DNA of 20,000 bases from an uncultured virus (IMG/VR IMGVR_UViG_3300045020_000151). Its lineage: Duplodnaviria; Heunggongvirae; Uroviricota; Caudoviricetes. This document shows positions 1-12,971 of this stretch, one piece after another. The notes beneath the pieces were generated by a model. That model ran no database searches. It worked only from the letters and a program-made list of their open reading frames with translations, and was not told the origin of the DNA. Position numbers and translations under genes: made by a program. Within the stretch, counting starts at the first letter, position 1. Every line of letters begins with the position of its first letter. The DNA lies in IMG/VR virus record IMGVR_UViG_3300045020_000151. One strand, 5' to 3'.

Positions 1-1459
1 CCTGGTCGTCTCCGGTGAGAGAGGTCGTGAAGCGGAGCTGAGGTGGAGAGCCACCGTCATCGCTGACTGCGACTCCGGGGATGTTGGTTCCAATGGCCGC
101 TTCGACCGCAGCCATGTTGGAGAACGGACCGCCGGTGAAGGTGAAGCGACCGGAGGTGGCCACACCGTTCACCGTGACGATGTAGTCCAGGTACAGACCG
201 GCCAGGGTGAAGGGGCCGGAGCCTGCACCAACTCCTGTCACCCTTCCAGCCGTCGCTGCGGTGCCTGAGATGCTGCCGGTGACGCTGGCGGCGATGGGAG
301 CAGCCAGGGTCCAATCGATGTTGTTCGCCTTGAAGTAGGCGTACTTCGGGCCGAACGGGTTCGGATCGAAGATGGTCCCGACCGTCGAGGGGTTGTACAC
401 CTTGGTGACGTAGTTCCCGTTGGCGTCGACGGTGGAGAGGGCGGTGTTGATGGTCCCGAGCTGGAATCGGGCCGACTGCACCGTCATGACCTCGGCGCCG
501 TTCACCCGAATGCCGTCAGCGAAGAACCAATCGCCGACTCGAAGATCGTAGGTGCCGGAAGAACCGAAGGTGACGGCCGAGTGGGCGGCAGAGCTGAAGG
601 TGGTCGGCGTCTCGATGTTGTAGAGACCCGCCTTCGATGGGAAGGACGTGCTGGCTCCATCGAGCAGGTAGGCGCCGGCGTAGAACTCGATCCAAGAAGA
701 CCGGGTCGTGTTGTTGTTCTGGTTCTGGCCTCTCCAACCGGAACCCTCGATGCGCTCTTCGTGAGCGTTTGAACCGCTGGAGTAGCCGATCTGCAGGACG
801 GAGTTCGCAGAGGCTCCTGCACGGACCGTGACCGAAGCCAGCGCTCCGTACTTGGTCGAGGCGATCTGCACCTTGTCGCTCGGAGCAGTGCCCACCACCG
901 TGGCCACGGTTTGACCCACCGCAGCGTTGATCTGCGCTGCAGCTTGGGCTGAGGTCAGATTGCCGGAGCCAACGAAGGTGATGGTGATGTCGGGGACGTG
1001 GTTCGCATCGACTGGGTTGTCGATGGAGAGCACCAACACCGTTCCGTTCAGAGCGAGACCGGTACCACCGTTGAAGACAACCGTCTGGATGGCCGGCTGT
1101 CCGGCCCCATGAGCGGTGGCGAAGAAGGCTTCACCATGCCCCTGTTGATCGAGAAGCTCTCCGAGAGTGCCACCCTGGAGCAAGAAGGTGCGAACCGTGT
1201 TGTTCTGCACCACCAGCTCTGCGGCATTCCCACGCGGGGCGGGGAAGGAGCTCTCCGTGATGGAGAGAGGGGTCTGCAGGTACTGGCCGAAGAGGTCCCC
1301 CGAGTTGATGGTCCCGTCAGCGTTCAGGACGTTCGTGATCTCGAAGGCCGGGCCCACGACGACCGGAACGAGTGTTGGGGTGACGAAGGAAGGCGCAGGC
1401 GTCGAGAGCTGCTGAATGACTTCAACTCCGGGACGCGGGAGCTCGGCTGGCAGGGCCAT
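1..1459 (-). CDS. Contractile tail sheath protein, N-terminal part (runs off the left edge)
   Basis: Open frame from ATG at 1459 (SD AAAGGAG) to the window edge. MALPAELPRPGVEVIQQ...PVVVGPA resembles the RPGVYV N-terminal signature of tail sheath proteins, followed by Gly/Thr-rich beta-type sequence. Absent from the ORF track because it has no stop in the window. Confidence 0.7.
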   Translation of the reverse strand, partial: MALPAELPRPGVEVIQQLSTPAPSFVTPTLVPVVVGPAFEITNVLNADGTINSGDLFGQYLQTPLSITESSFPAPRGNAAELVVQNNTVRTFLLQGGTLGELLDQQGHGEAFFATAHGAGQPAIQTVVFNGGTGLALNGTVLVLSIDNPVDANHVPDITITFVGSGNLTSAQAAAQINAAVGQTVATVVGTAPSDKVQIASTKYGALASVTVRAGASANSVLQIGYSSGSNAHEERIEGSGWRGQNQNNNTTRSSWIEFYAGAYLLDGASTSFPSKAGLYNIETPTTFSSAAHSAVTFGSSGTYDLRVGDWFFADGIRVNGAEVMTVQSARFQLGTINTALSTVDANGNYVTKVYNPSTVGTIFDPNPFGPKYAYFKANNIDWTLAAPIAASVTGSISGTAATAGRVTGVGAGSGPFTLAGLYLDYIVTVNGVATSGRFTFTGGPFSNMAAVEAAIGTNIPGVAVSDDGGSPPQLRFTTSLTGDDQ

Positions 1460-1477
1460 TGAAGAGTTCTCCTTTCG

Positions 1478-2281
1478 CTACTTGCGCGGCTTCGGGGTCT
1501 TGATGAGCCCCTGAGCAACCGTCTGTGAGAGTGTCAGCACCTTGTCATACCCAATCAGCTTCCCGTTGATGCCTGGCTCCCTGATTGCCGTCGCGCCTGG
1601 GGCGGGCCATTCGATCTCTGAACTTAGGGCGACGGCCACTTTGGTGAGAAGCGATTTGTTGAGAGGAGAGGTAGTCCAGGTGTCTTGGAAGTAGAACGGG
1701 ACTTGCACACCAACGAGGATGATTTCGTTGGGATCTCCGGTGACGATGGAGCCCGGAGGAGACTCAGAACCGACCTGCAGTTCTTCACCCACCCGATGAA
1801 GACCGGCTCCCAAGAGGAACCTCTTCAAGACACGAGTGGCGTAGAGGGCAATCCAGGCAATCCGTTGGGCCTCAATCCCCTCTCGGGAGAGGCAGTTGTA
1901 GGTCATCGACGCCGAGATGAGGTCCGTATGGCGGACAGCCCCCGAGACTGGATCGTTGTTGGGGGTGAAGGTGAACTTGCCAGACGCGTCTTTCACCAAG
2001 AGAGGCCCAGCGAACTGGTCAAGAGCTATGTTCGCAAAGGCCGCTGGTCCTCTTGAGACGATGATGGCCGGTCTCTTCTCGACCACCTCTTTGTCGATGG
2101 GGTTCTGATCAGAGATGGTGATGTCGGTGTTCTTCTCTTCAGCGTCCCAACGGTAGGCACCCTTCTCGAAGGTGCCGAAGACAATCTGCAAGAACTTGCA
2201 GAAGAGCCTGGCGAACTGCGTCAGAGGGTCTTCGCCGAACCCCTGAGGCTGAGGAACGCCTTGTGAGACTCTCTCGCTCAC
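1478..2281 (-). CDS. Virion morphogenesis protein, possibly tail completion/terminator
   Basis: 267 aa ORF directly upstream of the sheath gene; RPAIIVSRG motif and position suggest a tail terminator/neck protein (inference). Confidence 0.5.
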   Translation of the reverse strand: MSERVSQGVPQPQGFGEDPLTQFARLFCKFLQIVFGTFEKGAYRWDAEEKNTDITISDQNPIDKEVVEKRPAIIVSRGPAAFANIALDQFAGPLLVKDASGKFTFTPNNDPVSGAVRHTDLISASMTYNCLSREGIEAQRIAWIALYATRVLKRFLLGAGLHRVGEELQVGSESPPGSIVTGDPNEIILVGVQVPFYFQDTWTTSPLNKSLLTKVAVALSSEIEWPAPGATAIREPGINGKLIGYDKVLTLSQTVAQGLIKTPKPRK

Positions 2282-2622
2282 TTCGACTTCTCCTCGTACA
2301 TCTTCCTCAGAGCCAGTCTGGACGCCATGACGCCGGCGCCAAGAAGAGGTCCGACAATCAGCTTCTTCGTCTTCGGGTCCAACCGTGACCAGGCTGGTCC
2401 GAGCTTGGATCCAACGAGCTTGTCAGCAACGGTTGTGAGAGCCGAACCCACACCGGCCCCACCGGCGATCAAGGCGGTGTTCTTCAAGAACTTCTTGGCC
2501 TTGTCTCTTCGCTCTTGATGAATGGCGGAGGAGATCTTCTGCAGCTCGTCTAGAAAGCCATCAACGAATCGCGCCTCTGGGATGGCCGAAGGCAGCGATG
2601 ATGTCGTCGTAGTCCTCTCCAT
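2278..2622 (-). CDS. Small Lys/Gly/Ala-rich protein with FLDELQKIS motif
   Basis: 114 aa ORF, 4-nt overlap with the next gene; motif shared with 18741-19022. Start uncertain (62-nt overlap with the upstream gene). Confidence 0.65.
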   Translation of the reverse strand: MERTTTTSSLPSAIPEARFVDGFLDELQKISSAIHQERRDKAKKFLKNTALIAGGAGVGSALTTVADKLVGSKLGPAWSRLDPKTKKLIVGPLLGAGVMASRLALRKMYEEKSK

Positions 2623-3475
2623 CGTTTTCGAGGTTCTGGCGATTGAGGAAGTTCCTCTCGGCCGAAGGCTGCAACGTTTGGGTATTCACGTTCAGCGGGA
2701 GGTCGTATTCGATGTCACCCTTCGGAATCTCGTGAAGACCCAATTCCCACCGAACGGGAGTCCGAAGACGTTCAGTTGGTGTGGCTGAAACCACCTTCCA
2801 GCGTCGGTTTTCTGACTCCACAAGTATGTCGTTCACAGACACAGGTGGGAAGTAGATCATGCGCCCGGCCGTATCGATGGCCTGGCTCTGTCCAAGGGGA
2901 GTGGGCTTCAAATGCTGCCCGACTGGATCGATCTGAATCCAGACCTCGACGGGAGACATGTAGCCTCCCAAGAAGCCGGTGCCAAAGCAGGCCGCATGGT
3001 TGGACCTCGTCTTCCTCTGGAGGTTCACATCCCAGCAGGTGCACCGAGGACCAAAGGTCCTTCGTGGGAAGAGCCAGCAACGCCGACCAATGAACTCCCG
3101 GAAGAGGACGTCTTCTTCATGGTAGATGGCCGCCGCAATGAGATCAGGCTCTGGAATGCCTGAGGCGGCGGGGCCGAAGATCTTCTCGTCCCCGGTGGGA
3201 ACGTGGTGAACCTTGATTTGGTAGTAGTACTGCCGCCACTTGTGAAGAAGAGAGACCGAGACGTCTCGAATGGCGTACTGGTCGACGAGAGGACCGGCGA
3301 GTTGCTCGTAGGGCCCCTCCGGTGAATCCCCTGAGCGCAGAACGAAGAACTGGTAGTCGAAGATCTCATGCTTCTCTTCGTCGTTCCTCGGACCGAAGAC
3401 GGAGTCGATCTCCCAGAAGATGTCCAGGCGATCGAGGTCGAAGGAACGGACTGTGAGCTTCGAGATGTTGATCAC
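2561..3475 (-). CDS. Putative head-completion/neck protein with Cys-rich motif
   Basis: 304 aa; RCTCW...HAACFGTGFLGGY resembles the CxC...CxxCxGTG motif of large-myophage neck proteins; coupled to the upstream gene by overlap. Confidence 0.6.
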   Translation of the reverse strand: MINISKLTVRSFDLDRLDIFWEIDSVFGPRNDEEKHEIFDYQFFVLRSGDSPEGPYEQLAGPLVDQYAIRDVSVSLLHKWRQYYYQIKVHHVPTGDEKIFGPAASGIPEPDLIAAAIYHEEDVLFREFIGRRCWLFPRRTFGPRCTCWDVNLQRKTRSNHAACFGTGFLGGYMSPVEVWIQIDPVGQHLKPTPLGQSQAIDTAGRMIYFPPVSVNDILVESENRRWKVVSATPTERLRTPVRWELGLHEIPKGDIEYDLPLNVNTQTLQPSAERNFLNRQNLENDGEDYDDIIAAFGHPRGAIR

Positions 3476-4047
3476 GGGAAGTTGCGCTGGACCAGGTACG
3501 TGGCGAGGTTAACTCCCGTGTACGTGGCCGCGATGGAGTACTGACCAATCTTGTTGGTGTCGTAGGTCCCTGGACTGGCAGCCTGGGCTGCAGCGGCATC
3601 TGCAGCCGTGCTGTAGATGCGAAGCCGGCCAGATGTCAGATTGTTGTTCCCGTCGAAGCTGGTGATGTCGAGGACCGAGTTCTCGTGTAGAAGTCCCAGG
3701 CTCCTGAAGAGAAGAACTGCCACGTCGTCATTGAGGTACCCAACGATCTGGAACCTCATGATGGTGAAGTCGGTGACAGGTGAAGATGTGCTGTTGAACG
3801 AGAGGACCAAGACCCCTAGCTCGTTCAAGATGCCGGCCGGGAGCCCGGCCATGTAGACACCTGGAGCATTGACCGAGTCCACCTCGGTCCAACTCGTCAG
3901 GGTGACGGTGACCTCCGAAGCGTCGTTCTTGATGGCCTTGACGACGAGATGGGCGGTGGTGACCCCAGTCTGACGGGTGACGCCGTCAGAGGCGAACATC
4001 ATCACTGCGATGTTGGCGGCCGTGCTCTGTTTGAGGAGGTCAGCCAT
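3472..4047 (-). CDS. Putative virion structural protein
   Basis: 191 aa, Thr/Val/Ser-rich beta-type sequence in the structural operon. Confidence 0.7.
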   Translation of the reverse strand: MADLLKQSTAANIAVMMFASDGVTRQTGVTTAHLVVKAIKNDASEVTVTLTSWTEVDSVNAPGVYMAGLPAGILNELGVLVLSFNSTSSPVTDFTIMRFQIVGYLNDDVAVLLFRSLGLLHENSVLDITSFDGNNNLTSGRLRIYSTAADAAAAQAASPGTYDTNKIGQYSIAATYTGVNLATYLVQRNFP

Positions 4048-4052
4048 ACACC

Positions 4053-4493
4053 CTACCCATCAAATCCAGCGTTGAAGTCCAGTCTCCTCCCAGCCGAGAT
4101 GGATGAGAAGGTGTCACTGACGGGTCCGTTGACCAAGTTGTTGAGGGTCGCTGCAGTGCCAGCAGCAACGTCGATTCGATAGCTGCCAGCCTGGAGTCCA
4201 CCGCTGAGGTGAAGAGTGACTCCCTGCGTTCCGTCAAAGGTCACCGACGAAACTGTCAGCGCCGGCTGGCTGCTCAAAGAGGTGATGGTGTAGTTGGCAG
4301 CCGTCGTGAGGGCGGACAGGTTCTCAAGAGCGAAGTTCCACTTCAAGAGGACCTGTGAACCACCAGCCTCTGATGCGACAAAGAGGAGGGCTGGAGGGAA
4401 TGCCTCCATCGTCAATCTGCGAACACGCTGAGCGACTGGAAGGAACATCGGATCCAGTGGCGGCGTGAAGAAGAATCGGGTGACTGCCGGCAC
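4053..4493 (-). CDS. Putative Ig-like virion protein
   Basis: 146 aa, GTG start; TAANYTI...VTLHL pattern recalls bacterial Ig-like domains (inference). Confidence 0.6.
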   Translation of the reverse strand: MPAVTRFFFTPPLDPMFLPVAQRVRRLTMEAFPPALLFVASEAGGSQVLLKWNFALENLSALTTAANYTITSLSSQPALTVSSVTFDGTQGVTLHLSGGLQAGSYRIDVAAGTAATLNNLVNGPVSDTFSSISAGRRLDFNAGFDG

Positions 4494-4502
4494 GGCTTCT
4501 CC

Positions 4503-5561
4503 TTACAGAGAGGGAGACGTATTGCATGGGAACCAGCAGGTGCCCATGACGACGGAGGTGACTGGAGGTGTAACAGGTGGCGAACTGGGTGGATCCGTCT
4601 TTCCGTTCGATGCGTTTGTCCCGTCGATTCCTGCAGCCTTGATGTCTACGATCCTCCCACGCCGTGTTCTGTGTGAGTTCGAGTTGGAGGTGTTGCTGAA
4701 GACAGCGATTGGCCAATCGGGAATGGTACCGTCTTGACCATCACCACTGTTTGCGAAGCCTCCAGCCATGGGCCCGATGGAAGAGTTGTAGGGCTGGTAT
4801 GGACCGTAACTCGAAGCGGTCGTCCCGTCCGAACCAGAGTTATCTGTGTAGCGAGCTTGCCAAATGGAGGTGCCGAAGAAGGCTGAATTGGTGGGCACTC
4901 CTGGAGCCCCGTTGTTGTATTCCATGTAGAGTCCGTACGGGAAAACGTCTCCGGAATACGCCTGGGCCATCATGGGGAGATACGACATCCACTGAGCCTG
5001 CCCCTGTCCGGACTTCTGCGAGAACATGTAGTGATCCCCAATGGTGCTGAGGACCCCGCTGAAGGCGAAGGTGGTCGAAGATCCATCTGTGATTTGCAGG
5101 TTGGTGAATGGGTTGCAAGCATCGGTGGTGGTCGGATCGTTGGTGCTGGAGCCGCCTGTCGGGGCACTCTTGCTGAATCTGACGTTGATGAAGTTGAAGC
5201 CACCAGTACCCGACATGCTGACGAGTAAGTAGCAACCAGGTCCGAAACCGCTTGAGGGACTCTTGTAGCAAATCCAAGAGTGAGCCGTTCCGTTCGTTGC
5301 GCTCACGTACTTCGAGAAGTTGAACGTGCTGCCCCAACGATCGACAGCATCCATTGCTCCGGTGACCCCATCACTGGAACCGGCAACAGTCCAAGCTCCA
5401 GTTGGAGAGCCGATGGCGACGTTGTTGATGTCGGTGAACGAGAGCAGCGCCAACATCAACTGATGGTGGAAGAAGAGAAGAGACGCTGCCAGACGGTTGA
5501 CCGTCGTGTTGTCCGCCGGGGCAACGTTCCAGGCGTGCTGGTAGACCCGTTCGAAGGCCAT
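4503..5561 (-). CDS. Putative virion structural protein
   Basis: 352 aa, Ser/Thr/Gly/aromatic-rich, GGGAG SD, tightly packed in the operon. Confidence 0.75.
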   Translation of the reverse strand: MAFERVYQHAWNVAPADNTTVNRLAASLLFFHHQLMLALLSFTDINNVAIGSPTGAWTVAGSSDGVTGAMDAVDRWGSTFNFSKYVSATNGTAHSWICYKSPSSGFGPGCYLLVSMSGTGGFNFINVRFSKSAPTGGSSTNDPTTTDACNPFTNLQITDGSSTTFAFSGVLSTIGDHYMFSQKSGQGQAQWMSYLPMMAQAYSGDVFPYGLYMEYNNGAPGVPTNSAFFGTSIWQARYTDNSGSDGTTASSYGPYQPYNSSIGPMAGGFANSGDGQDGTIPDWPIAVFSNTSNSNSHRTRRGRIVDIKAAGIDGTNASNGKTDPPSSPPVTPPVTSVVMGTCWFPCNTSPSL

Positions 5562-5591
5562 TGCTTCACTCCCGAATCAGAGACTGTGGTC

Positions 5592-6308
5592 CTACTTGCC
5601 AACTGCAGGGGCCATGCGGCCCACGAGCTTTTGAGCGCCTCCCACGAGAGCCGGAGCGGCTGCACCAGCGACTCCGCCGGCGGCAGCTCCACGGAGAGCG
5701 CCCCCGAGGCGGCTGCCGGATTGCCCGGTCATCGGATTGATGCCCGGCTTCTGGGCGGCGCCACCGACTGCTCCGATGGCTGCTCCGCCTGCAGCACGCC
5801 CCAACATGGAGGAACCTGCCATCGCCTTGCCTGCGCTCTGGAGACCCTTGGTGACGGTGGGCATCGCCTTGCCGAGGAGACCAGAGACGCCTGGAGGAAG
5901 AGCGAGAGACTTCTTCTCCTTGCCCATGTTCTGGAGCCAGCGTTCTGAGTGTCGGCCAGCCTGGACTCCACCGAGGTATCCCGCTCCGAGACCGTACTTC
6001 CCGGAGTGTTTGGCAACGTGTCCTTTGACCGCTCCGGCTGCCCCCTTGAGAGCGTCCATCTTCGAACCTGCGGTCTTGGCGAAGTCACGGGCGAGGTCTC
6101 GGCCCCACTGATCCGCAAGAGCGAACTTCTCTTCGGCCGACATCTTCACCATGTCGCTCTTCTTCTCCTTCTTCGGAGAAGCTTCCTTCTTGATGAGCTC
6201 TTCGAGCTCTTCGATGGGAAGATCCTTGAAGGCGGAGGCGAGTTTCGTCTTCTTCGAATCCACCGAGCTCAAGGCCTCGGCGAAGGTCATCTCGGCGGTC
6301 TTCTCCAC
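5592..6308 (-). CDS. Lys/Ala/Gly-rich protein with repeated K-x-A motifs (possible internal head protein)
   Basis: 238 aa, GTG start with GGAGG SD; motifs KTA, KLA, KEA; Gly-zipper-like C-terminus. Confidence 0.7.
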   Translation of the reverse strand: MEKTAEMTFAEALSSVDSKKTKLASAFKDLPIEELEELIKKEASPKKEKKSDMVKMSAEEKFALADQWGRDLARDFAKTAGSKMDALKGAAGAVKGHVAKHSGKYGLGAGYLGGVQAGRHSERWLQNMGKEKKSLALPPGVSGLLGKAMPTVTKGLQSAGKAMAGSSMLGRAAGGAAIGAVGGAAQKPGINPMTGQSGSRLGGALRGAAAGGVAGAAAPALVGGAQKLVGRMAPAVGK

Positions 6309-6317
6309 GGGTTCCTC

Positions 6318-6785
6318 CTACTTCAAGGCCTTCAGAATCTTGAGGCCAGCCATCGCCCCTGCAGGGGCGACCATGAGTCCTGCTGCGGTTGGGTGCTTGG
6401 CCAGGAGATCCGCAACACCCGAGACTCCAGGAGCCGCAGCGTGCATGAGCCCCTTTGCCAAGCCGGGCTCCACTCCCGTCTGCTCTTGAGTCTGCTTTGC
6501 GGCGGCTGCGGAGTCGGTGAGCTTCCGACCGACTCTCTGTTCAGCCGAGGGCTCACCGTTCTTCCCAGGCTTGGCCATGGCTCGGCCGAGAAGTCCTGCT
6601 CCCAACGCTCCAACTCCGCCGGCGATGATCGATCCCTTGTTCCGACTGGCTGCCTCGCCGGCGTGTCGAACGAAGTTCTTCGCCATGCCCTTGGCCATGT
6701 CGAGTTTCGGACCAGCCGTCTTCATCTTCTTGAGGAAGGCCCTGCCCGCCGCCTTCTCGATGATGTCGTTCAGAGATTCGGACAT
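6318..6785 (-). CDS. Lys/Ala/Gly-rich protein with K-x-A motifs
   Basis: 155 aa, first gene of the left minus-strand block; EKAA and AFLKKMKTA motifs. Confidence 0.7.
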   Translation of the reverse strand: MSESLNDIIEKAAGRAFLKKMKTAGPKLDMAKGMAKNFVRHAGEAASRNKGSIIAGGVGALGAGLLGRAMAKPGKNGEPSAEQRVGRKLTDSAAAAKQTQEQTGVEPGLAKGLMHAAAPGVSGVADLLAKHPTAAGLMVAPAGAMAGLKILKALK

Positions 6786-6843
6786 GGATGCTCAAGGGTA
6801 GAGCGGGTTTGGGGTCTGTAGGAAGCAATTCGTCAGGAACCGC

Positions 6844-6873
6844 TTGACAGTTTCGTCTCGGCCTTGAGATGCT
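6844..6873 (+). promoter_or_regulatory. Putative sigma70-type promoter of the tRNA array
   Basis: Perfect TTGACA at 6844-6849, 18-nt spacer, TG-N-GATGCT as a weak extended -10. Confidence 0.5.
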
Positions 6874-6883
6874 GGAGGCCTCG

Positions 6884-7033
6884 ATGAAGACCGTGTCGAA
6901 AACGCAGAGAGGGCAAGCCGGATCGCCAGTGGCGACCGCAGGCGTAGCCTATTTGCGCGATTCGTTCGGTTGCCGAGCCTCAAAGCCGCAGATTCACCTC
7001 AGCCTGAATACCGAAGAGCGCCCGCCCGGCTAG
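6884..7033 (+). CDS. Leader peptide, 49 aa (MKTVSKTQRG...EERPPG)
   Basis: GGAGG SD 5 nt before ATG; its last codons overlap the antiterminator arm; below the ORF-track size cut-off. Confidence 0.65.
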   Translation: MKTVSKTQRGQAGSPVATAGVAYLRDSFGCRASKPQIHLSLNTEERPPG

Positions 7034-7070
7034 GGTCCCGAGAAGAAGCTTTCTCCCACCAAGCCGGGCG
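7023..7070 (+). promoter_or_regulatory. Antiterminator hairpin
   Basis: CGCCCGGCT (7023-7031) is the exact complement of AGCCGGGCG (7062-7070); inner helices GGT/ACC and GAGAAG/CTTTCTC. Confidence 0.65.
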
Positions 7071-7101
7071 ACCCAAAGAGGTCTCCCGGCTTTTCGCGTT
7101 T
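7061..7101 (+). terminator. Intrinsic terminator (attenuator)
   Basis: AAGCCGGG-C-GACC / GGTC-T-CCCGGCTT hairpin followed by TTCGCGTTT. Confidence 0.7.
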
Positions 7102-7141
7102 CAGGAGGTCTGCGTCTCCAACCCAACATGCCGTTCTGAAT

Positions 7142-7209
7142 AGGCCGTCCTCCAGCGAGGAACCTGAACTCCAAATCCAGGTAGCAGGGATCAACACCTT
7201 GACGGCCTG
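7142..7209 (+). tRNA. tRNA-Trp(CCA), atypical (minimal D arm, T loop ATCAACA)
   Basis: Acceptor AGGCCGT/ACGGCCT, G73, loop CT-CCA-AA, T stem CAGGG/CCTTG. Confidence 0.7.
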
Positions 7210-7274
7210 CTTCTGCAGACGTTCTCTGACATCCTGAATAGCTCGATGAGCCCGATGAAGGATCGGGCTCACAT

Positions 7275-7347
7275 GCCCCGCTAGCTCATCTGGTAGAGCG
7301 CCTGTTTCGTAAACAGGAGGTGATCGGTTCAAGTCCGATGTGGGGCT
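7275..7347 (+). tRNA. tRNA-Thr(CGT)
   Basis: Cloverleaf; CCTGT-TT-CGT-AA-ACAGG. Confidence 0.95.
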
Positions 7348-7423
7348 CTTGTTGCTGTAGGCGCCGATAGCCTCCGGTGCGTAACCACTCGCCCCTCGCT
7401 TGAGTCGCCGATCAGCAGCATCT

Positions 7424-7496
7424 GCGGATGTAGCTCAGTTGGTAGAGCATCTGCTTGCCAAGCAGAAGGTCGTCGGTCCGAATCCGATCATCCGCT
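7424..7496 (+). tRNA. tRNA-Gly(GCC)
   Basis: Cloverleaf; TCTGC-TT-GCC-AA-GCAGA; T loop TCCGAAT. Confidence 0.93.
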
Positions 7497-7582
7497 CAGC
7501 AGCGTGCAGGCTCCATAGCGGTGTTCTCGCCGTTCAGGGCCTGGAGAAGAGGGCGCCCTTCCCTCACGCACGGGGCAAGCAT

Positions 7583-7665
7583 GGTGGAGTAGTTCAAGCG
7601 GCAAAGACATCAGACTGTAAATCTGACGCCTCCGGGCTTCGAAGGTTCGAGTCCTTCCTCCACCA
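7583..7665 (+). tRNA. tRNA-Tyr(GTA)
   Basis: Cloverleaf with long variable arm; TCAGA-CT-GTA-AA-TCTGA. Confidence 0.95.
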
Positions 7666-7669
7666 AGTT

Positions 7670-7740
7670 GGGTCCTTAGTTCAATGGTAGAACCATCGCC
7701 TCTTAAGCGACCAATGAGAGTTCGATTCTCTCAGGACCCA
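7670..7740 (+). tRNA. tRNA-Lys(CTT)
   Basis: Cloverleaf; loop CT-CTT-AA. Confidence 0.92.
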
Positions 7741-7790
7741 CTGAAAGGAGAAGTCATGCGATTGAAACAGGACGGCAGTGACAAACGAAT

Positions 7791-7862
7791 GCCTCCGTAG
7801 CTCAAAGGTAGAGCACTCGCCTTTTAAGCGAAGGGTTGCAGGTTCGAGTCCTGTCGGGGGTA
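7791..7862 (+). tRNA. tRNA-Lys(TTT)
   Basis: Cloverleaf; loop CT-TTT-AA. Confidence 0.92.
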
Positions 7863-7865
7863 CTC

Positions 7866-7937
7866 GCGGCCATAGCTCAGTGGTAGAGCGCTTGGTTCCC
7901 AACCAAGAAGTCGAGGGTTCAAGTCCCTCTGGCCGCT
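7866..7937 (+). tRNA. tRNA-Gly(CCC)
   Basis: Cloverleaf; CTTGG-TT-CCC-AA-CCAAG. Confidence 0.95.
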
Positions 7938-7940
7938 CTT

Positions 7941-8012
7941 GCGGAAGTAGCTCAGAGGTAGAGCGTCTGCCTTCCAAGCAGAATGTCGTGGGTTCAATTC
8001 CCATCTTCCGCT
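7941..8012 (+). tRNA. tRNA-Gly(TCC)
   Basis: Cloverleaf; TCTGC-CT-TCC-AA-GCAGA. Confidence 0.95.
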
Positions 8013-8017
8013 CTTGA

Positions 8018-8071
8018 AGTCTTCCCGGGGCCCAATGGCGGCCTGCAGGGAGTCACGCTCGTGAACCGAGC
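8018..8071 (+). ncRNA. Unidentified structured RNA motif, copy 1
   Basis: AGTCTTCC...GGGAGTCAC followed by hairpin GCTCG-TGAAC-CGAGC. Confidence 0.6.
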
Positions 8072-8073
8072 TT

Positions 8074-8144
8074 TCGCGTGTAGCTCAATTGGTAGAGCAC
8101 CGGCCTAGAAGCCGGCTGTGCTGGTTCGAGTCCGGCCATGCGGT
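8074..8144 (+). tRNA. tRNA-like gene with 6-nt anticodon loop (CTAGAA), identity undetermined
   Basis: Intact acceptor, D and T arms; anticodon arm CCGGC-CTAGAA-GCCGG. Confidence 0.75.
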
Positions 8145-8151
8145 CTTTCGT

Positions 8152-8274
8152 AGTCTTCCTCTACCCTGTGGGGCCCCCATCAGCACCCAATCTCGATTGG
8201 ATGTTGTTGGGGCCTCTTCAGGGATCGACAGATCGGAATGCCACCGATTCGGGAGTCACACCCGTGAACCGGGT
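8152..8274 (+). ncRNA. Unidentified structured RNA motif, copy 2 (larger insert)
   Basis: AGTCTTCC...GGGAGTCAC followed by ACCCG-TGAAC-CGGGT; the insert folds into two hairpins. Confidence 0.6.
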
Positions 8275-8275
8275 A

Positions 8276-8348
8276 TGGGTCATAGCTCAGTCTGGTAGAG
8301 CGCCGGCCGAGATGCCGGAGGTCACAGGTTCAAATCCTGTTTGCCCAG
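8276..8348 (+). tRNA. tRNA-like gene with 6-nt anticodon loop (CGAGAT), identity undetermined
   Basis: Canonical D and T arms; anticodon arm CCGGC-CGAGAT-GCCGG. Confidence 0.75.
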
Positions 8349-8368
8349 CTTGCAGTCGCGGTGTCGAT

Positions 8369-8439
8369 TGAGGCGTCGTCTAACGGCAGGACGCCGGTCT
8401 TTGGAACCGGCTGTCTAGGTTCAAATCCTAGCGCCTCAG
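8369..8439 (+). tRNA. tRNA-Gln(TTG)
   Basis: Cloverleaf; CCGGT-CT-TTG-GA-ACCGG. Confidence 0.95.
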
Positions 8440-8442
8440 CAT

Positions 8443-8513
8443 TGGGGAATCGTCTAATGGTAGGACTCCAGGCTCTGACCCTGGCTATCTAGGTCCGAAT
8501 CCTAGTTCCCCAG
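8443..8513 (+). tRNA. tRNA-Gln(CTG)
   Basis: Cloverleaf; CCAGG-CT-CTG-AC-CCTGG; T loop TCCGAAT. Confidence 0.93.
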
Positions 8514-8516
8514 CTT

Positions 8517-8589
8517 GCCGAAGTAGCTCAATAGGTAGAGCGCCAGTTTTGTAAACTGGATGTTGCAGGTTCAATTCCTGTCTTCGGCT
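8517..8589 (+). tRNA. tRNA-Thr(TGT)
   Basis: Cloverleaf; CCAGT-TT-TGT-AA-ACTGG. Confidence 0.95.
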
Positions 8590-8606
8590 CTGAAGAGAAG
8601 AAGCAT

Positions 8607-8678
8607 TCCCCGATAGCTCAATGGCAGAGCGCCCGGCTGTTAACCGGTTGGTTGAAGGTTCGAGTCCTTCTTGGGGAG
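8607..8678 (+). tRNA. tRNA-Asn(GTT)
   Basis: Cloverleaf; loop CT-GTT-AA. Confidence 0.95.
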
Positions 8679-8681
8679 CAC

Positions 8682-8753
8682 GGCACCGTAGCCAAGTGGT
8701 AAGGCACGAGTCTGCAAAACTCACATTCGTCGGTTCGACTCCGACCGGTGCCT
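8682..8753 (+). tRNA. tRNA-Cys(GCA)
   Basis: Cloverleaf; loop CT-GCA-AA, U73. Confidence 0.95.
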
Positions 8754-8795
8754 CAACTGTCAAAGAGGTACTAACAGCTACTACTTTAGTAGAAT

Positions 8796-8867
8796 GGCCT
8801 CATCGTCTAACGGTTAGGACACGGCGTTCTCAGCGCCGTTATTGGGGTTCAAATCCCCATGAGGCTA
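8796..8867 (+). tRNA. tRNA-Glu(CTC)
   Basis: Cloverleaf; CGGCG-TT-CTC-AG-CGCCG. Confidence 0.93.
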
Positions 8868-8938
8868 CTTGCTGCGCCACCCATGAGAAGCCAAGAGTCG
8901 ATCCGACCGAGAGCCAGGGTGGGAGCGCAGCAAAACAC

Positions 8939-9010
8939 GTCCCTGTAGCTAGCGGCCCAGGCATTCTGCCTTTCAAGCAGGAGACGCGGGTTCGAATCCC
9001 GCCAGGGACA
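8939..9010 (+). tRNA. tRNA-Glu(TTC)
   Basis: Cloverleaf with weak D stem; loop CT-TTC-AA. Confidence 0.88.
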
Positions 9011-9013
9011 CAT

Positions 9014-9087
9014 CTGGGAGTAGCTCAGCCTGGTAGAGCGCTTGCCTTGGGCGCAAGAGGCCGCAGGTCCGAATCCTGTCTCCCAGA
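9014..9087 (+). tRNA. tRNA-Pro(TGG)
   Basis: Cloverleaf; CTTGC-CT-TGG-GC-GCAAG; T loop TCCGAAT. Confidence 0.93.
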
Positions 9088-9092
9088 CAGTA

Positions 9093-9166
9093 CGAGACGT
9101 AGCTCAGCTTGGTAGAGCACTTCCTTGGGGTGGAAGGGGCCGGAGGTTCGAATCCTCTCGTCTCGA
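9093..9166 (+). tRNA. tRNA-Pro(GGG)
   Basis: Cloverleaf; CTTCC-TT-GGG-GT-GGAAG. Confidence 0.95.
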
Positions 9167-9174
9167 CAGTAGAA

Positions 9175-9253
9175 GGGTCGCATGTCAGCCGTCGAAAGAC
9201 GGTCCACTCGGAAACCGAACCCTATAGTGGCCAGTCGTGAGGCTGGTGACCTG
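9175..9253 (+). ncRNA. Cloverleaf-shaped RNA with GNRA tetraloops
   Basis: Closing stem GGGTCGC/GTGACCT; arms CCGTC-GAAA-GACGG, CCACT...AGTGG, CAGTC-GTGA-GGCTG. Confidence 0.55.
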
Positions 9254-9257
9254 TCAT

Positions 9258-9331
9258 CGAGGTGTAGCGAAGCCTGGTATCGCACTTGGTTCGGGACCAA
9301 GGGATCGTGAGTTCGAATCTCACCACCTCGA
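9258..9331 (+). tRNA. tRNA-Pro(CGG)
   Basis: Cloverleaf; CTTGG-TT-CGG-GA-CCAAG. Confidence 0.95.
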
Positions 9332-9332
9332 C

Positions 9333-9404
9333 TGGCTCATAGCTCAACGGTAGAGCAAGCGCTCGATAGGCGCTGGGTTCTAGGTTCAAATCCTAGTGGG
9401 CCAA
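9333..9404 (+). tRNA. tRNA-Ile(GAT) with C33
   Basis: Cloverleaf; AGCGC-TC-GAT-AG-GCGCT. Confidence 0.85.
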
Positions 9405-9412
9405 CTCGTAAT

Positions 9413-9485
9413 GCCTAGCGTCGTCCAATTGGTCAGGACACCTGATTGTGGCTCAGGGAACCACGGTTCGAATCCGTGCCTAGGT
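9413..9485 (+). tRNA. tRNA-His(GTG) with irregular acceptor stem
   Basis: CCTGA-TT-GTG-GC-TCAGG; 5' GCCTAGCG against 3' CCTAGGT leaves one base unpaired. Confidence 0.8.
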
Positions 9486-9492
9486 GCTGTAC

Positions 9493-9566
9493 GGGTCGTG
9501 AGGAAGCTTGGTGAATCCGCCTGCCTGTCACGCAGGATCTGACCGGTTCAAATCCGGTACGGCCCG
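9493..9566 (+). tRNA. tRNA-Asp(GTC)
   Basis: Cloverleaf; CCTGC-CT-GTC-AC-GCAGG, G73; G at position 8. Confidence 0.9.
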
Positions 9567-9653
9567 CTCAAAGCAAAACGTCAGACCCTCTTGGTAGAAG
9601 GCCTCTGGACTGAGCATTTAGCTCAATCTCCAACCAACCTTGAGAGGGAAGAC

Positions 9654-10592
9654 ATGTCGAGCAAGAAGAGCACGAAGACTGGGCAGTTCGAGAAGCAACA
9701 GAACGACAACACCATCACCCGAGCCTCCGGCATCACGGTGGACTCGGCTCTGAAGTCGCTGTCGACTGCCCAGGCGGTCGTTGGGAAGACACTCGCTGGA
9801 GTGGGTGAGCAGATTCAGTCTCAGCTCCTGGAGCTGGACACGGTGACCAAGGCGGTCGAGCTCAAGAAGGACGAGCTGAAGACGATTCACGGAGTCGAGA
9901 TCGTCGCCAAGAACATCGAGGAGATGGAGGCGGAGTTCGTCTCTCGTCGAGAGCTGGCCACCGCTCACTTCCGTTCCTTCCAGGCCGAGCAGGAGACGGC
10001 TCGGTCCGACGCCAATCGCGACTTCAGCCAGTTCCTGGCGCAGCAGAAGGCCAACCGGGATCAGGCCATGGCCGATTGGGCGTACAACTTCTCCCAGGAG
10101 CAGAAGAAGGCCCGAGACGCCTTCGCCGAGGAGATGCGAGTCATCCGGAACCAGGAGCGGGATCGTTCGGAGGCTCTGTCGAAGAGCTGGGCGGCCCGGG
10201 ATGAGGAGCTCAAGAAGAACGAGGCCCTCTTCGCCGATCTCCAGAAGCAAGTCGCCGAGTTCCCCGCCAAGCTCAAGACGGAGACGGAGAAGGCAGCTTC
10301 CATCGCCGGCAACTCGGTCAAGCGCGACTACGAACACCAGTTCGAGTTGCTGAAGAAGGACTCCGAGGTTGCGGCCAAGATGTCGGCCAACACCATCGAG
10401 AGCCTCCAGACGACCATCGCGAATCAGAACAGCGTCATCACCACGCTGCAGGCCAAGCTGACCGACGCGGAGAAGAAGGTCGAGACCATCGCCACGAAGG
10501 CTCTGGATGCCGCTTCCGGCCGCCAGACCCTCGCCGAGCTGCAGAGCCTCCGGTCGGACAACGGGGCGCCGTACGCTGCTCGCAAGACGTAG
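9654..10592 (+). CDS. Long coiled-coil protein, 312 aa
   Basis: ATG at 9654 after GAGAGGGAA; E/K/A/Q-rich heptad pattern, strongly GC3-biased codons. Confidence 0.85.
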   Translation: MSSKKSTKTGQFEKQQNDNTITRASGITVDSALKSLSTAQAVVGKTLAGVGEQIQSQLLELDTVTKAVELKKDELKTIHGVEIVAKNIEEMEAEFVSRRELATAHFRSFQAEQETARSDANRDFSQFLAQQKANRDQAMADWAYNFSQEQKKARDAFAEEMRVIRNQERDRSEALSKSWAARDEELKKNEALFADLQKQVAEFPAKLKTETEKAASIAGNSVKRDYEHQFELLKKDSEVAAKMSANTIESLQTTIANQNSVITTLQAKLTDAEKKVETIATKALDAASGRQTLAELQSLRSDNGAPYAARKT

Positions 10593-10605
10593 CCGTTCAA
10601 CTCTT

Positions 10606-10641
10606 AGCCCCCACCCAGCCCTTCTGGTGGGTGGGGCTCTT
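10606..10641 (+). other. GC-rich hairpin after the coiled-coil gene (processing/stability site or weak terminator)
   Basis: AGCCCC-CACC...GGTG-GGT-GGGGCT stem with no real U tract. Confidence 0.45.
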
Positions 10642-10714
10642 GCCCTGGTAGCTCAGTTGGTAGAGCAGCGGTCTGAAGAGCCGCGTGTCGGAGGTTCGAT
10701 TCCTTCCTGGGGCA
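10642..10714 (+). tRNA. tRNA-Phe(GAA)
   Basis: Cloverleaf; loop CT-GAA-GA. Confidence 0.95.
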
Positions 10715-10721
10715 CTGTGTT

Positions 10722-10794
<73 letters not shown>

Positions 10795-10796
10795 CT

Positions 10797-10868
10797 AGCG
10801 CTGTAGCTCAGGGGTAGAGCACTTCCTTGACATGGAAGGGGTCGTGGGTCCGATTCCCATCAGCGCTA
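10797..10868 (+). tRNA. tRNA-Val(GAC)
   Basis: Cloverleaf; loop TT-GAC-AT; T loop TCCGATT. Confidence 0.93.
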
Positions 10869-10941
10869 CAAGTGGTGCAGGCACGCATCACCCAGGCAGC
10901 TTCGGAGAGCAAGACCATGTGACTTCGAGGTTGCCGTTAAT

Positions 10942-11014
10942 GGGCTCGTAGCTCAGTCGGGAGAGCGCCTGGTTCGCAATCAGGAGGTCGAGAGTTCGAT
11001 TCTCTCCGGGTCCA
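10942..11014 (+). tRNA. tRNA-Ala(CGC)
   Basis: Cloverleaf; G3:U70; loop TT-CGC-AA. Confidence 0.95.
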
Positions 11015-11152
11015 CTACTTCTTCTTTAGCCAGAGATAGACGAGAGCGGTGATGAGAAGAACGCAGCCGACGAAGAAGGCTGCTGGCAGTTCTGGAGGTG
11101 GAGCAGTCGGTGCTTCGCTCTTGAGAGAGTTGTAGGCCGTGTAAGTGATCAT
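11015..11152 (-). CDS. Small single-pass membrane protein, 45 aa, antisense to the array
   Basis: MITYTAYNSLKSEAPTAPPPELPAAFFVGCVLLITALVYLWLKKK almost exactly fills the spacer between two tRNA-Ala genes; hydrophobic helix followed by KKK. Confidence 0.55.
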   Translation of the reverse strand: MITYTAYNSLKSEAPTAPPPELPAAFFVGCVLLITALVYLWLKKK

Positions 11153-11154
11153 GA

Positions 11155-11226
11155 GGGTCCGTAGTTCAGCGGGAGAACGTCGCCTTTGCAAGGCGAATGT
11201 CGCCGGTTCGAGTCCGGCCGGATCCA
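11155..11226 (+). tRNA. tRNA-Ala(TGC)
   Basis: Cloverleaf; G3:U70; loop TT-TGC-AA. Confidence 0.95.
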
Positions 11227-11230
11227 AGTT

Positions 11231-11301
11231 GCCCCCGTAGCTCTAAGGCAGAGCACGCCCTTGGTAAGGGTGAGGCGAGAGTTCGATTCTCTCCAGGGGC
11301 A
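11231..11301 (+). tRNA. tRNA-Thr(GGT)
   Basis: Cloverleaf; loop TT-GGT-AA. Confidence 0.92.
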
Positions 11302-11304
11302 CAC

Positions 11305-11378
11305 GCACCCATAGTCCAACTGGATACGACGCCTGACTACGAATCAGGAGACTGAGGGTTCAACTCCTTCTGGGTGCG
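11305..11378 (+). tRNA. tRNA-Arg(ACG)
   Basis: Cloverleaf; CCTGA-CT-ACG-AA-TCAGG. Confidence 0.95.
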
Positions 11379-11382
11379 CCTT

Positions 11383-11457
11383 GTCTCTGTAGCTCAGTTG
11401 GAATAGAGCGTTCGCCTCCGAAGCGAAAGGTCGCAGGTTCAAATCCTGCCAGAGACG
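11383..11457 (+). tRNA. tRNA-Arg(CCG)
   Basis: Cloverleaf; TTCGC-CT-CCG-AA-GCGAA. Confidence 0.95.
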
Positions 11458-11462
11458 CTGAT

Positions 11463-11534
11463 GTTCCCATCGTTCAACGGACAGGACACTGGTTTCCTAA
11501 ACCTGGAATGGGGGTTCAAATCCCTCTGGGAACG
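11463..11534 (+). tRNA. tRNA-Arg(CCT)
   Basis: Cloverleaf; loop TT-CCT-AA. Confidence 0.92.
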
Positions 11535-11550
11535 CTTTAGAGTTCTTCAT

Positions 11551-11625
11551 CGCGGGGTAGATCAGTCTGGTTAGATCGCTGGGCTCATAACCCGGAGGCC
11601 GTCGGTTCAAATCCGACCCCCGCAA
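11551..11625 (+). tRNA. Initiator tRNA-fMet(CAT)
   Basis: C1:A72 mismatch and three consecutive G-C pairs in the anticodon stem. Confidence 0.93.
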
Positions 11626-11631
11626 CTTGCT

Positions 11632-11705
11632 GGGCCCTTAGCTCAATGCGTAGAGCCCCCAGCTCATAACTGGGTCTTGTGCTGGTTCGAGTCCAGCAGG
11701 GCCCA
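11632..11705 (+). tRNA. tRNA(CAT), probably Ile2 (lysidine type)
   Basis: GGGCCCT acceptor typical of Ile2; loop CT-CAT-AA. Confidence 0.8.
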
Positions 11706-11714
11706 CTTCTCCAA

Positions 11715-11792
11715 CGTGACGTAGCTCAGCCCTGGAAGAGCACCGGTCTCATAAACCGGAGGTCGAGGGTTCAATCCCCTCCGTCACGACCA
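11715..11792 (+). tRNA. tRNA-Met(CAT), probably elongator, CCA encoded
   Basis: Cloverleaf; CCGGT-CT-CAT-AA-ACCGG; ends ACCA. Confidence 0.85.
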
Positions 11793-11793
11793 T

Positions 11794-11865
11794 GGTCCCT
11801 TAGCTCAGAGGTAGAGCGTCCCGTTCACACCGGGAAGGTCGAAGGTCCGATCCCTTCAGGGACTA
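11794..11865 (+). tRNA. tRNA-Val(CAC)
   Basis: Cloverleaf; loop TT-CAC-AC; T loop TCCGATC. Confidence 0.93.
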
Positions 11866-11871
11866 CTGCAA

Positions 11872-11954
11872 GGCCAAGTGGTGGAATGGTAGACACGCCA
11901 GCTTCAGGAGCTGGTGTTCGAAAGGACGTGAGAGTTCGACTCTCTCCTTGGCCA
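11872..11954 (+). tRNA. tRNA-Leu(CAG)
   Basis: Long variable arm; loop TT-CAG-GA. Confidence 0.95.
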
Positions 11955-11958
11955 AGTT

Positions 11959-12038
11959 GATCGAGTGGTGGAACTGGTAGACACACCAGCTTGAGGGGCT
12001 GGCGCTTCGGCATGAGGGTTCGATTCCCTCCTCGATCA
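11959..12038 (+). tRNA. tRNA-Leu(GAG)
   Basis: Long variable arm; loop TT-GAG-GG. Confidence 0.95.
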
Positions 12039-12039
12039 T

Positions 12040-12122
<83 letters not shown>

Positions 12123-12126
12123 AGTC

Positions 12127-12200
12127 GCCCCTGTAGTCCAATGGTAGGAGACGATGCGCTCAAAACGCAGACAGTAGTGGTTCGAGTCCACTCAGGGGCA
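12127..12200 (+). tRNA. tRNA-Leu(CAA), short variable loop
   Basis: Loop CT-CAA-AA; 5-nt variable region. Confidence 0.9.
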
Positions 12201-12209
12201 CTGTACAAT

Positions 12210-12283
12210 GGGCTCATGGTGAAACTGGCAAACACGGCCGACTTAAGATCGGAACATTGCAGGTTCAAATCCTGCTGGGCCCA
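12210..12283 (+). tRNA. tRNA-Leu(TAA), short variable loop
   Basis: Loop CT-TAA-GA; 5-nt variable region. Confidence 0.9.
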
Positions 12284-12300
12284 CTGGAAAGGAGGGCGTC

Positions 12301-12846
12301 ATGGAGTGTCTTGTTCTGAGTTCGAGCTTCATGCCCATGGCGAAGGTGCCCTGGCAAAGAGCAGTCACCCTCTACTTCAAGAACCTGGTGGAGGTCGTTG
12401 AGCACCATGACGCGGTGATCCACTCCGTCACGTTGGAGCTCAAGGTGCCTTCCGTTGTCCGCTTCATCAGAGGCTCCAAGCCTCGGAGGAAGGCCATCAA
12501 GTTCTCTCGTGAGAATGTCTACGCGAGGGACGCTGGGCGCTGCCAGTACTGCAGCCGTCCATGCGACAGGAGCGAGGCCACCTACGACCACGTCATCCCG
12601 AGAGCTCAGGGAGGTGGCACTCACTGGGACAACATCGTCATCGCCTGTGTCCCCTGCAACCAGAAGAAGGGCGGCAGGACTCCGGAGCAGGCAGGGATGC
12701 ACCTCAGGTCAGTTCCGGTGAAGCCGAAGAAGCTCCCGGACACGATGCGCTTCTGCATGACCTACCAAAAGGGCATGCCGCTATCGTGGAGACAGTGGCT
12801 CCAGGTTGATTTGCCGTACTGGCACGGAGCTCTGGACGAGAAGTAG
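12301..12846 (+). CDS. HNH endonuclease (McrA-like)
   Basis: RD..RCQYC...TYDHVIPRAQGG.THWDNIVIAC..CNQKKG motif; SD AAAGGAGG. Confidence 0.92.
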   Translation: MECLVLSSSFMPMAKVPWQRAVTLYFKNLVEVVEHHDAVIHSVTLELKVPSVVRFIRGSKPRRKAIKFSRENVYARDAGRCQYCSRPCDRSEATYDHVIPRAQGGGTHWDNIVIACVPCNQKKGGRTPEQAGMHLRSVPVKPKKLPDTMRFCMTYQKGMPLSWRQWLQVDLPYWHGALDEK

Positions 12847-12870
12847 CCACGGGTGCAACGCCCGTGGTCT

Positions 12871-12959
12871 GGAAGAGTTGGTACATTGGCAAGTCCGCAC
12901 GGCTCGAACCCGTGTAGTCGTCTTCGGGCGACTTGGCGGTTCAACTCCGCCCTCTTCCT
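12871..12959 (+). tRNA. tRNA-Ser(CGA), atypical D arm, U73
   Basis: GGAAGAG/CTCTTCC acceptor; loop CT-CGA-AC; 7-bp variable stem with TTCG loop. Confidence 0.82.
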
Positions 12960-12971
12960 CTTTTAGCTGTC

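Follow-up and report, generated by a model that had tools for sequence, protein, structure and literature searches.

A putative ribosome-dependent attenuator of transcription ahead of a phage tRNA array

The tRNA Array and Its Neighborhood

The DNA analyzed here, a window of 20,000 nucleotides, belongs to a phage-like contig from soil metagenomes. All genes in its left part (2–6785) are on the minus strand, so that the 489 nt between this minus-strand operon and the first tRNA gene (6786–7274) form a divergent spacer. To the right follows, on the plus strand, an array (7275–14404) of 48 tRNA genes found by ARAGORN, 42 of which are confirmed by Rfam; we presume this array to be the regulated target. 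It begins with a tRNA-Thr at 7275 and comprises 19 isotypes with 43 distinct anticodons; a 333-aa ORF (phrog_29668) and two genes for HNH-type endonucleases interrupt it. Three of the tRNAs (13617–13843) are on the minus strand and are preceded by a strong promoter match on that strand (14239 to 14212). GTA and TGG are the only sense codons that are not read by a tRNA of the array.

The proteins encoded next to the array have few homologues in metagenomes. For the 155-aa neighbor and the 333-aa ORF within the array no relatives were found in viral_contigs, and among isolate phages the neighboring 773-aa and 352-aa proteins had zero tblastn matches. An alignment of the 352-aa protein retrieved 9 loci in a metagenome scan, all with at most 38% identity, a set that omits a 2977-nt JGI contig carrying a 71% homologue of this protein; a wider alignment retrieved 42 loci from viral_contigs, all with at most 42% identity. 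A tRNA scan of 47 of these 51 loci (left out were L023, L026, L027 and L028, each shorter than 3 kb) revealed zero arrays and a single tRNA at 3 loci. By blastn against isolate phages, the leader and the first tRNA block yielded single-tRNA matches only.

The Leader Open Reading Frame

Within the divergent spacer, on the same strand as the array and ahead of its first gene at 7275, lies a small ORF (6884–7033) that begins with an ATG at 6884 and consists of 49 sense codons followed by TAG (7031–7033). It encodes the peptide MKTVSK...SLNTEERPPG-stop, for which a Pfam or PHROG family match was not found. The ORF uses 37 distinct codons for 19 kinds of amino acids (Trp is absent), among them all four Gly codons and both codons each of Lys, Gln and Glu. 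This content, including the R-P-P-G end, is as counted in the first-pass annotation, a reading of the sequence alone which had proposed that the ORF samples codons in order to sense the tRNA pool.

Two arguments for such a sampler had been a high codon diversity and a GC3 unlike that of the neighboring genes. These 15 genes span 0.56–0.84 in GC3, and with a value of 0.69 the ORF is therefore not unlike them in this respect. The codon diversity is indeed rare among genes, at least 37 distinct codons being reached in only 4 of the 3899 windows of 49 codons that were taken in frame from the 15 annotated genes (mean 28.3, sd 3.2) and in 3 of 237 non-annotated open frames, but 7.1% of draws of random codons with the base composition of the spacer reach it too (mean 33.1, sd 2.35). 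In the same draws 19 kinds of amino acids were reached in 6.7%, and when the 489-nt spacer was shuffled, 66% of the shuffled sequences had an ATG-started ORF of at least 49 codons. Taken by itself, the window shows an ORF that resembles unbiased sequence and not a designed sampler.

The codons of the leader call on 34 of the 43 anticodons of the array, a number that none of the 3899 gene windows reaches (maximum 33); its GTA codon is read by no tRNA of the array. Runs of one regulatory codon are absent from the leader. Instead there are 19–20 kinds of amino acids, corresponding to the 19 isotypes of the array, and it is only in this generalized sense that the leader codons fit the regulated genes.

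The end of the peptide had been likened to that of RAPP/RAGP-type arrest peptides, which carry R-A-P-P or R-A-G-P at their C terminus. The leader peptide ends E-R-P-P-G-stop, which contains the pause motif PPG and neither RAPP nor RAGP, and the comparison had to be given up.

Candidate Promoter and Shine-Dalgarno-Like Site

A candidate promoter of the sigma-70 type (6844–6873) is composed of TTGACA (6844–6849), an 18-nt spacer with a TG at 6865–6866, and GATGCT (6868–6873). It is the only lenient −35/−10 match on the plus strand within 6600–7300; a stricter promoter scan made no call of it. When TTGACA is taken as −35 element, the sole −10 candidate is TG-n-GATGCT (6865–6873), which predicts a transcription start near 6880. 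GGAGG (6874–6878), a Shine-Dalgarno-like sequence 5 nt upstream of the ATG, falls inside the −10/start zone of this candidate promoter; sites with a GGAG core also precede 9 of the 16 other listed starts.

TTGACA and GGAGG are both located where the first-pass annotation had placed them, but they are not usable jointly as it had assumed: the predicted start near 6880 is downstream of GGAGG, and therefore promoter and Shine-Dalgarno site exclude each other as read. As far as the sequence goes, translation of the leader would need either a near-leaderless start or a real promoter further upstream. An ECF-type promoter (GGAAC...CGTCT, 6837–6859) was considered and dropped, its spacing being too short.

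Between the terminator described below and the first tRNA (7101–7274) the lenient scan found no sigma-70-like promoter on the plus strand. There may be a phage-type promoter within 7117–7274.

Folding of the Leader RNA

The strongest feature in the window is an RNA fold. The region 6984–7116 folds on the plus strand with −59.9 kcal/mol (z = −4.53; MFE and centroid structure are the same), which none of 200 shuffles equaled, as compared with a z of −1.67 for the minus strand. In this fold a segment designated A (7024–7031 of 7023–7031) is paired with a segment designated B (7062–7069 of 7062–7070) around a small hairpin (7034–7060) that brings the two together, and an outer stem, the 5′ strand of which (6987–7019) comprises codons 35–46 of the ORF, pairs with 7089–7114 and thereby sequesters the U tract in the read-through fold.

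Segment A, CGCCCGGCT (7023–7031), reaches from codon 47 (Pro) into the stop codon, of which it includes the first base, and is the 5′ strand of the antiterminator. It is perfectly complementary to segment B, AGCCGGGCG (7062–7070), as had been claimed. A perfect complement to B of at least 9 nt anywhere in the 176 nt upstream was found in 1.1% of 5000 dinucleotide shuffles, and since the 9-nt complement observed also spans the stop codon, a chance origin is less likely still.

Segment B is at the same time part of the 5′ arm of a putative terminator hairpin (7061–7092) with a loop at 7074–7079 and segment C (7080–7092) as 3′ arm. Folded alone, the hairpin has 8+4 pairs and −22.3 kcal/mol (z = −4.73), again with none of 200 shuffles as good. 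On its 3′ side is an interrupted U tract, TTTTCGCGTTT (7091–7101). Thus, from the terminator with U tract put forward originally the strong hairpin stands, while the U tract is short, interrupted and was missed in a consensus scan, because the rule of the scan demands 5 T in 8 and here there are 4. Transcription is predicted to terminate at this hairpin with its U tract (together 7061–7101).

For 7020–7101 two mutually exclusive folds are near balance (−33.6 versus −29.2 kcal/mol). Folding of both conformations, which the first-pass annotation had called for, bore out a terminator/antiterminator geometry that is specific for the plus strand. When growing transcripts were folded in silico, A:B was present from a 3′ end at 7072 onward and the terminator never appeared as long as A was unmasked. 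Masking of 7013–7046 or 7016–7046, which corresponds to a ribosome that has Pro48 in its P site or has reached the stop codon with its A site, gave the terminator, and with masking of solely upstream stretches the antiterminator stayed. The idea that a ribosome at the end of the ORF operates the switch is thus supported in silico, in that covering the footprint at the last codons turns the antiterminator into the terminator.

The 5′ two-thirds of the leader ORF have no significant fold (z = −1.64), and a classical 1:2 element is therefore not evident. An Rfam scan of 6700–7300 with E up to 10 detected no T-box and no amino-acid leader; there was one spurious 19-nt match. On the plus strand the stretch from 7117 to the first tRNA (7117–7274) is folded with a z of −2.68 (2 of 200 shuffles were as good) and contains two copies of CTGAATAG, at 7136 and 7234, and a perfect 10-bp hairpin (7246–7270).

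Relatives of the Leader Peptide

The ORF of the window was also predicted, in a 54-aa version, by the JGI gene caller on three contigs, the longest of which has 77,299 nt. Homologous peptides are P0030 (49 aa), which is 98% identical to the window peptide with G10W as single change, P0032 (54 aa; 67% identity; E = 1.5e-5) and P0033 (50 aa; 60–66% identity; E = 2.1e-5). The ORF is thus conserved, at the peptide level, in two diverged relatives (60–67% identity), as the first-pass annotation had anticipated; the homologues come from called proteins, among which lineages with a broken ORF would be invisible.

P0033 is encoded on an ENA contig of 43,373 nt, and P0032 on a Logan contig of 11,432 nt. 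Homologues of the 352-aa protein (73%) and of the adjacent 155-aa protein (65%) are on a contig of the same source, also of 11,432 nt, which we take to be the same contig; the locus would then be syntenic.

Across the alignment of the homologues M-x-T-V-S-K at the N terminus, the region K-P-Q-x-H ... S-L-N-T-E-E-R-P-P-G at the end, and the start and stop of the ORF are invariant. The middle of the peptide is variable and has several in-frame indels. In the fold, base pairing takes up almost the whole of the last ten codons, so that the invariance of the C terminus may reflect the RNA and not the peptide.

Contigs from three further soil runs of different studies contain the leader with 0 differences (those of a fourth run do not cover it), so that the leader is stable in nature, yet offers no variation to test. 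The leader-peptide alignment had zero matches in viral_contigs and genome_contigs, and tblastn of P0032 against isolate phages gave just two chance matches (E = 6 and 8). A search for the three-part pattern of the switch found one unrelated contig, which has no tRNAs.

All 20 amino acids are found in each of the peptides P0030, P0032 and P0033, which have 49–54 residues, compared with 19 in the window peptide. All 20 kinds are present in 0.77% of 1561 random ORFs of 45–60 residues and in 0.1–2.5% of 50–54-residue windows of real proteins. In comparison with P0030, the columns of Tyr, Phe, Cys and Ile no longer hold these residues in P0032, where each of the four is present elsewhere in the peptide, and in P0033 Asp, Ile and (by one column) Trp are relocated. 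Relocation of rare residues with all 20 kinds kept is what a sampling leader would predict.

When the changed positions were redrawn from three background compositions, the probability of having all 20 was 0.020–0.025 for P0032 and 0.070–0.081 for P0033; with as many changes as were observed, an unconditional simulation gave 0.078 and 0.029, respectively. The two lineages are not fully independent, because both share Ile at one column, which places the joint probability somewhere between about 0.002 and the values for a single lineage. As an independent test, comparison of these sequences favors the sampling-leader idea with moderate strength through the retained completeness of the amino acids.

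Proposed Mechanism

On balance we favor the view that the 5′ leader of the phage tRNA array contains a transcription attenuator operated by ribosomes. We infer for it translation of the leader, a coupling of ribosome and polymerase, and a biological trigger.

The transcript would begin at the small ORF or upstream of it, the promoter candidate being that at 6844. In the nascent RNA, A (7023–7031) would pair with B (7062–7070) before C is made, and because A:B forms before C exists, read-through into the tRNAs would be the default. A ribosome arriving at Pro-Pro-Gly-stop would cover A and leave B free for C. With B:C formed as terminator hairpin, transcription would stop in the U tract near 7095–7101. 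When the ribosome is absent, lags behind or is stalled earlier at a hungry codon, A would stay free and the array would be transcribed. Since absent, slow and early-stalled ribosomes all free A, the output would rise as decoding capacity falls.

In the absence of EF-P, ribosomes pause at PPG, the A site being occupied by Gly-tRNA and the P site by peptidyl-tRNA-Pro (PMC4140641). Such a pause, taking place directly on A, would keep A masked for longer, as B and C are being made about 30–70 nt ahead.

We put forward only tentatively the further suggestion that the leader is a pan-amino-acid sensor of the tRNA pool, or of the whole decoding capacity of the host, and that it is kept complete by selection. 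Nearly all amino acids, if not all, are represented in the leader, which would therefore register a lack of almost any charged tRNA. What speaks for the general tRNA-pool sensor of the first-pass annotation are the geometry of the switch, the conservation of the ORF and the retention of the amino acids; the codon count, the GC3, the pairing of promoter with Shine-Dalgarno site and the RAPP/RAGP resemblance, with which it had also been argued, do not support it or had to be abandoned.

Alternative Explanations

A rather unlikely explanation, though the best of the alternatives, is that the region is a structured 5′ leader of the pre-tRNA transcript, or a switch that is thrown by some protein or RNA factor and not by a ribosome; the ORF would then be secondary and kept open by constraint on the RNA. 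The strong, strand-specific fold would be expected from it, and the conserved ends of the peptide coincide with paired RNA or with the 5′ end of the transcript. Repeats also point in this direction. The motif CTGAATA is enriched, with 4 copies in the 20 kb versus 0.72 expected, all of them in the flanks of the array and three of the four in the leader. Finally, a perfect 16-nt inverted repeat, TCCTGAATAGCTCGAT, brackets the array with its left arm at 7232–7247 (plus strand) and its right arm at 14412–14427 (minus strand) and could form a processing stem; the exact 16-mer matches 20 viral contigs, which is about chance expectation, and none of them has a tRNA. A constraint on the RNA alone would, however, not predict that the middle of the peptide keeps its frame through several indels and that all 20 amino acids are retained while rare residues are relocated. 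Nor does 6700–7300 contain an Rfam family at E up to 10, and the stop codon is exactly on segment A.

It is improbable that the ORF is just a small phage gene of the ordinary kind, with a promoter and a terminator to itself, and that the array is transcribed from a separate, unrecognized promoter within 7117–7274, perhaps one that involves CTGAATAG. Such a gene would be conserved and called as protein, as this ORF is by the JGI gene caller; a hairpin with a U tract does follow it, and there are repeated motifs between the terminator and the first tRNA. But a peptide without a Pfam or PHROG match, with a middle that is poorly conserved and has indels, is not what one expects of it. The alternative pairing A:B across the stop codon would be purposeless in an ordinary gene, equilibrium folding yields no terminator unless A is masked, and 7101–7274 lacks a sigma-70-like promoter.

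The same hardware could also serve a more specific sensor, one for Pro/Gly or for EF-P, in which the dwell time at Pro-Pro-Gly-stop sets termination and the rest of the peptide is a spacer that has its full set of amino acids only incidentally; we give this possibility a low probability. ERPPG-stop is invariant in four of four homologues, PPG is an EF-P-dependent pause motif (PMC4140641), and the middle of the peptide is variable. That all 20 amino acids are kept although residues have been relocated is unexpected for a mere spacer, and the invariance of the end may come from the RNA.

A chance ORF with chance hairpins in a GC-rich spacer is strongly disfavored, for although ORFs of this length are common in shuffles (66–93%) and the codon diversity is random-like, chance would leave the z-scores of the folds (−4.5 and −4.7), the homologous peptides in diverged relatives and the identical leader in three further soil runs of different studies without explanation.

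Comparison with Known Systems

It is an open question why phages carry large sets of tRNAs and when these are used; in recent work phage tRNAs are linked to the escape from defenses that target tRNAs (PMC10264068; PMC11555353). If the leader does report decoding capacity and gate the array, it would provide a mechanism for the expression of phage tRNAs on demand, the near-complete set being opened only when elongation falters, e.g., upon decay of host tRNAs during infection or their cleavage by anticodon nucleases. It would be a homeostatic, self-limiting counter-defense, and also a compact natural sensor of translation stress built from the parts of an attenuator, in which attenuation of the trp type is extended from one amino acid to all.

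Full-text literature searching retrieved no account of leader-peptide attenuation of tRNA arrays. The trn operon of Anabaena sp. PCC 7120, a long array of supernumerary tRNAs whose expression is low until there is translational stress (PMC8421152; PMC10272220), had been named as a parallel. In Anabaena, however, the ribbon-helix-helix repressor TrcR acts at the promoter (PMC10272220), which is repression and not attenuation, and the parallel fails in this point. The Anabaena operon belongs to a cellular host and is governed by a repressor, whereas here a leader peptide and a terminator are proposed for a phage.

Closest in logic are the ribosome-mediated attenuators of bmrCD, mef/mel-msrD and yxjB, which respond to a general inhibition of translation and where slowed or stalled translation of a leader relieves a terminator (PMC4191407; PMC4335068; PMC10314930; PMC6851288). 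In these, as described in the sources cited, the output follows the state of translation and not one metabolite. They control resistance genes of Firmicutes in response to ribosome-bound antibiotics, whereas here the output would be a full set of tRNAs and the proposed signal is decoding capacity.

The attenuators of the amino-acid operons use an antiterminator that competes with an intrinsic terminator, and a ribosome at the stop codon leads to termination and one stalled upstream to read-through, just as proposed here. In the trpL, hisL, leuL, thrL, pheL and ilv leaders, as in the phage leader, the end of a short ORF overlaps the upstream strand of the antiterminator. The distance from the stop codon to the U tract, about 60–70 nt in the phage leader, is similar in trp. 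Unlike the leaders of the amino-acid operons, the phage leader has no run of codons for a single amino acid and has 19–20 amino acids instead, it lacks a significant upstream hairpin of the 1:2 type, it is longer (49 codons), and the genes regulated would be phage tRNAs and not biosynthetic enzymes. The hardware of the proposed attenuator is of the trp/his type, and what differs are the codon runs, the 1:2 hairpin and the tRNAs as targets.

Gene content of the tRNA array

The 48 tRNA genes of the array (7275-14404) decode all sense codons except two: GTA, as Val-UAC is missing, and TGG, as there is no tRNA-Trp. Tryptophan is exactly the amino acid that the leader peptide of the window is without; P0030, a near-identical strain variant of this 49-residue peptide, has Trp at residue 10.

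For three of the tRNA genes, 8074-8145 and 8276-8349 on the plus strand and 13770-13843 on the minus strand, ARAGORN assigned no anticodon. The two on the plus strand score 52-53 bits with Rfam and, as judged by eye, have 5-bp stems with anticodon loops of 6 nt (CTAGAA and CGAGAT, respectively). Such genes could serve as decoys or as decoders of an unusual kind, or could be copies undergoing decay.

The array also harbors three protein genes (9591-10592, 12301-12846 and 13115-13615), two of which are HNH/endonuclease VII-like; such genes are typical mobile insertions. A 333-aa ORF among the three matches phrog_29668 (E = 1.4e-10; function unassigned).

Directed at the three minus-strand tRNA genes of the array, which include Thr-AGT and Ile-AAT (anticodons with A34), is the best match to a sigma-70-type promoter in the window, at 14239 to 14212 on the minus strand (TTGACA and TAGAAT separated by a 16-nt spacer). 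Of its 12 positions, 11 agree. The match suggests that canonical promoters are read by the host polymerase.

Occurrence in soils

Apart from the run that is the probable source, three more soil-metagenome runs, which belong to different studies, have contigs with pieces of the region 6300-8300 that show 0 differences from the window. A fourth run contains two short identical pieces and one with a single difference. The distribution of this phage in soils is therefore wide.

Sequences flanking the array

The heptamer CTGAATA is present in 4 copies in the 20 kb, at 7004, 7136 and 7234 on the plus strand and at 14419 on the minus strand, versus 0.72 expected, and at least 4 copies were obtained in 3 of 200 shuffles. 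Each copy is located in non-coding sequence flanking the array, and three fall inside a 231-nt stretch of the leader. Farther upstream, directly adjoining the start of a minus-strand gene, GCTCAAGGGTAGAGC (6790-6804) matches the D-arm consensus of the array tRNAs (family D17) to 87-93%; either a tRNA remnant or chance could explain this similarity.

The whole array is bracketed by a perfect 16-nt inverted repeat, TCCTGAATAGCTCGAT, with its left arm at 7232-7247 (plus strand), 28 nt upstream of the first tRNA gene, and its right arm at 14412-14427 (minus strand), 8 nt downstream of the last. By eye, allowing one bulge (TGAC-A-) lengthens the match between the arms to 20 of 21 nt. The leader ORF (6884-7033) lies outside the repeat. 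Just short of the right arm ends a small minus-strand ORF (14430-14541), which has AGGAGG 6-7 nt 5' of its ATG and a predicted hydrophobic peptide as product. The two arms could be terminal repeats that delimit a mobile cassette; alternatively, by analogy with rRNA operons, they could form the stem at which a single long pre-tRNA transcript is processed.
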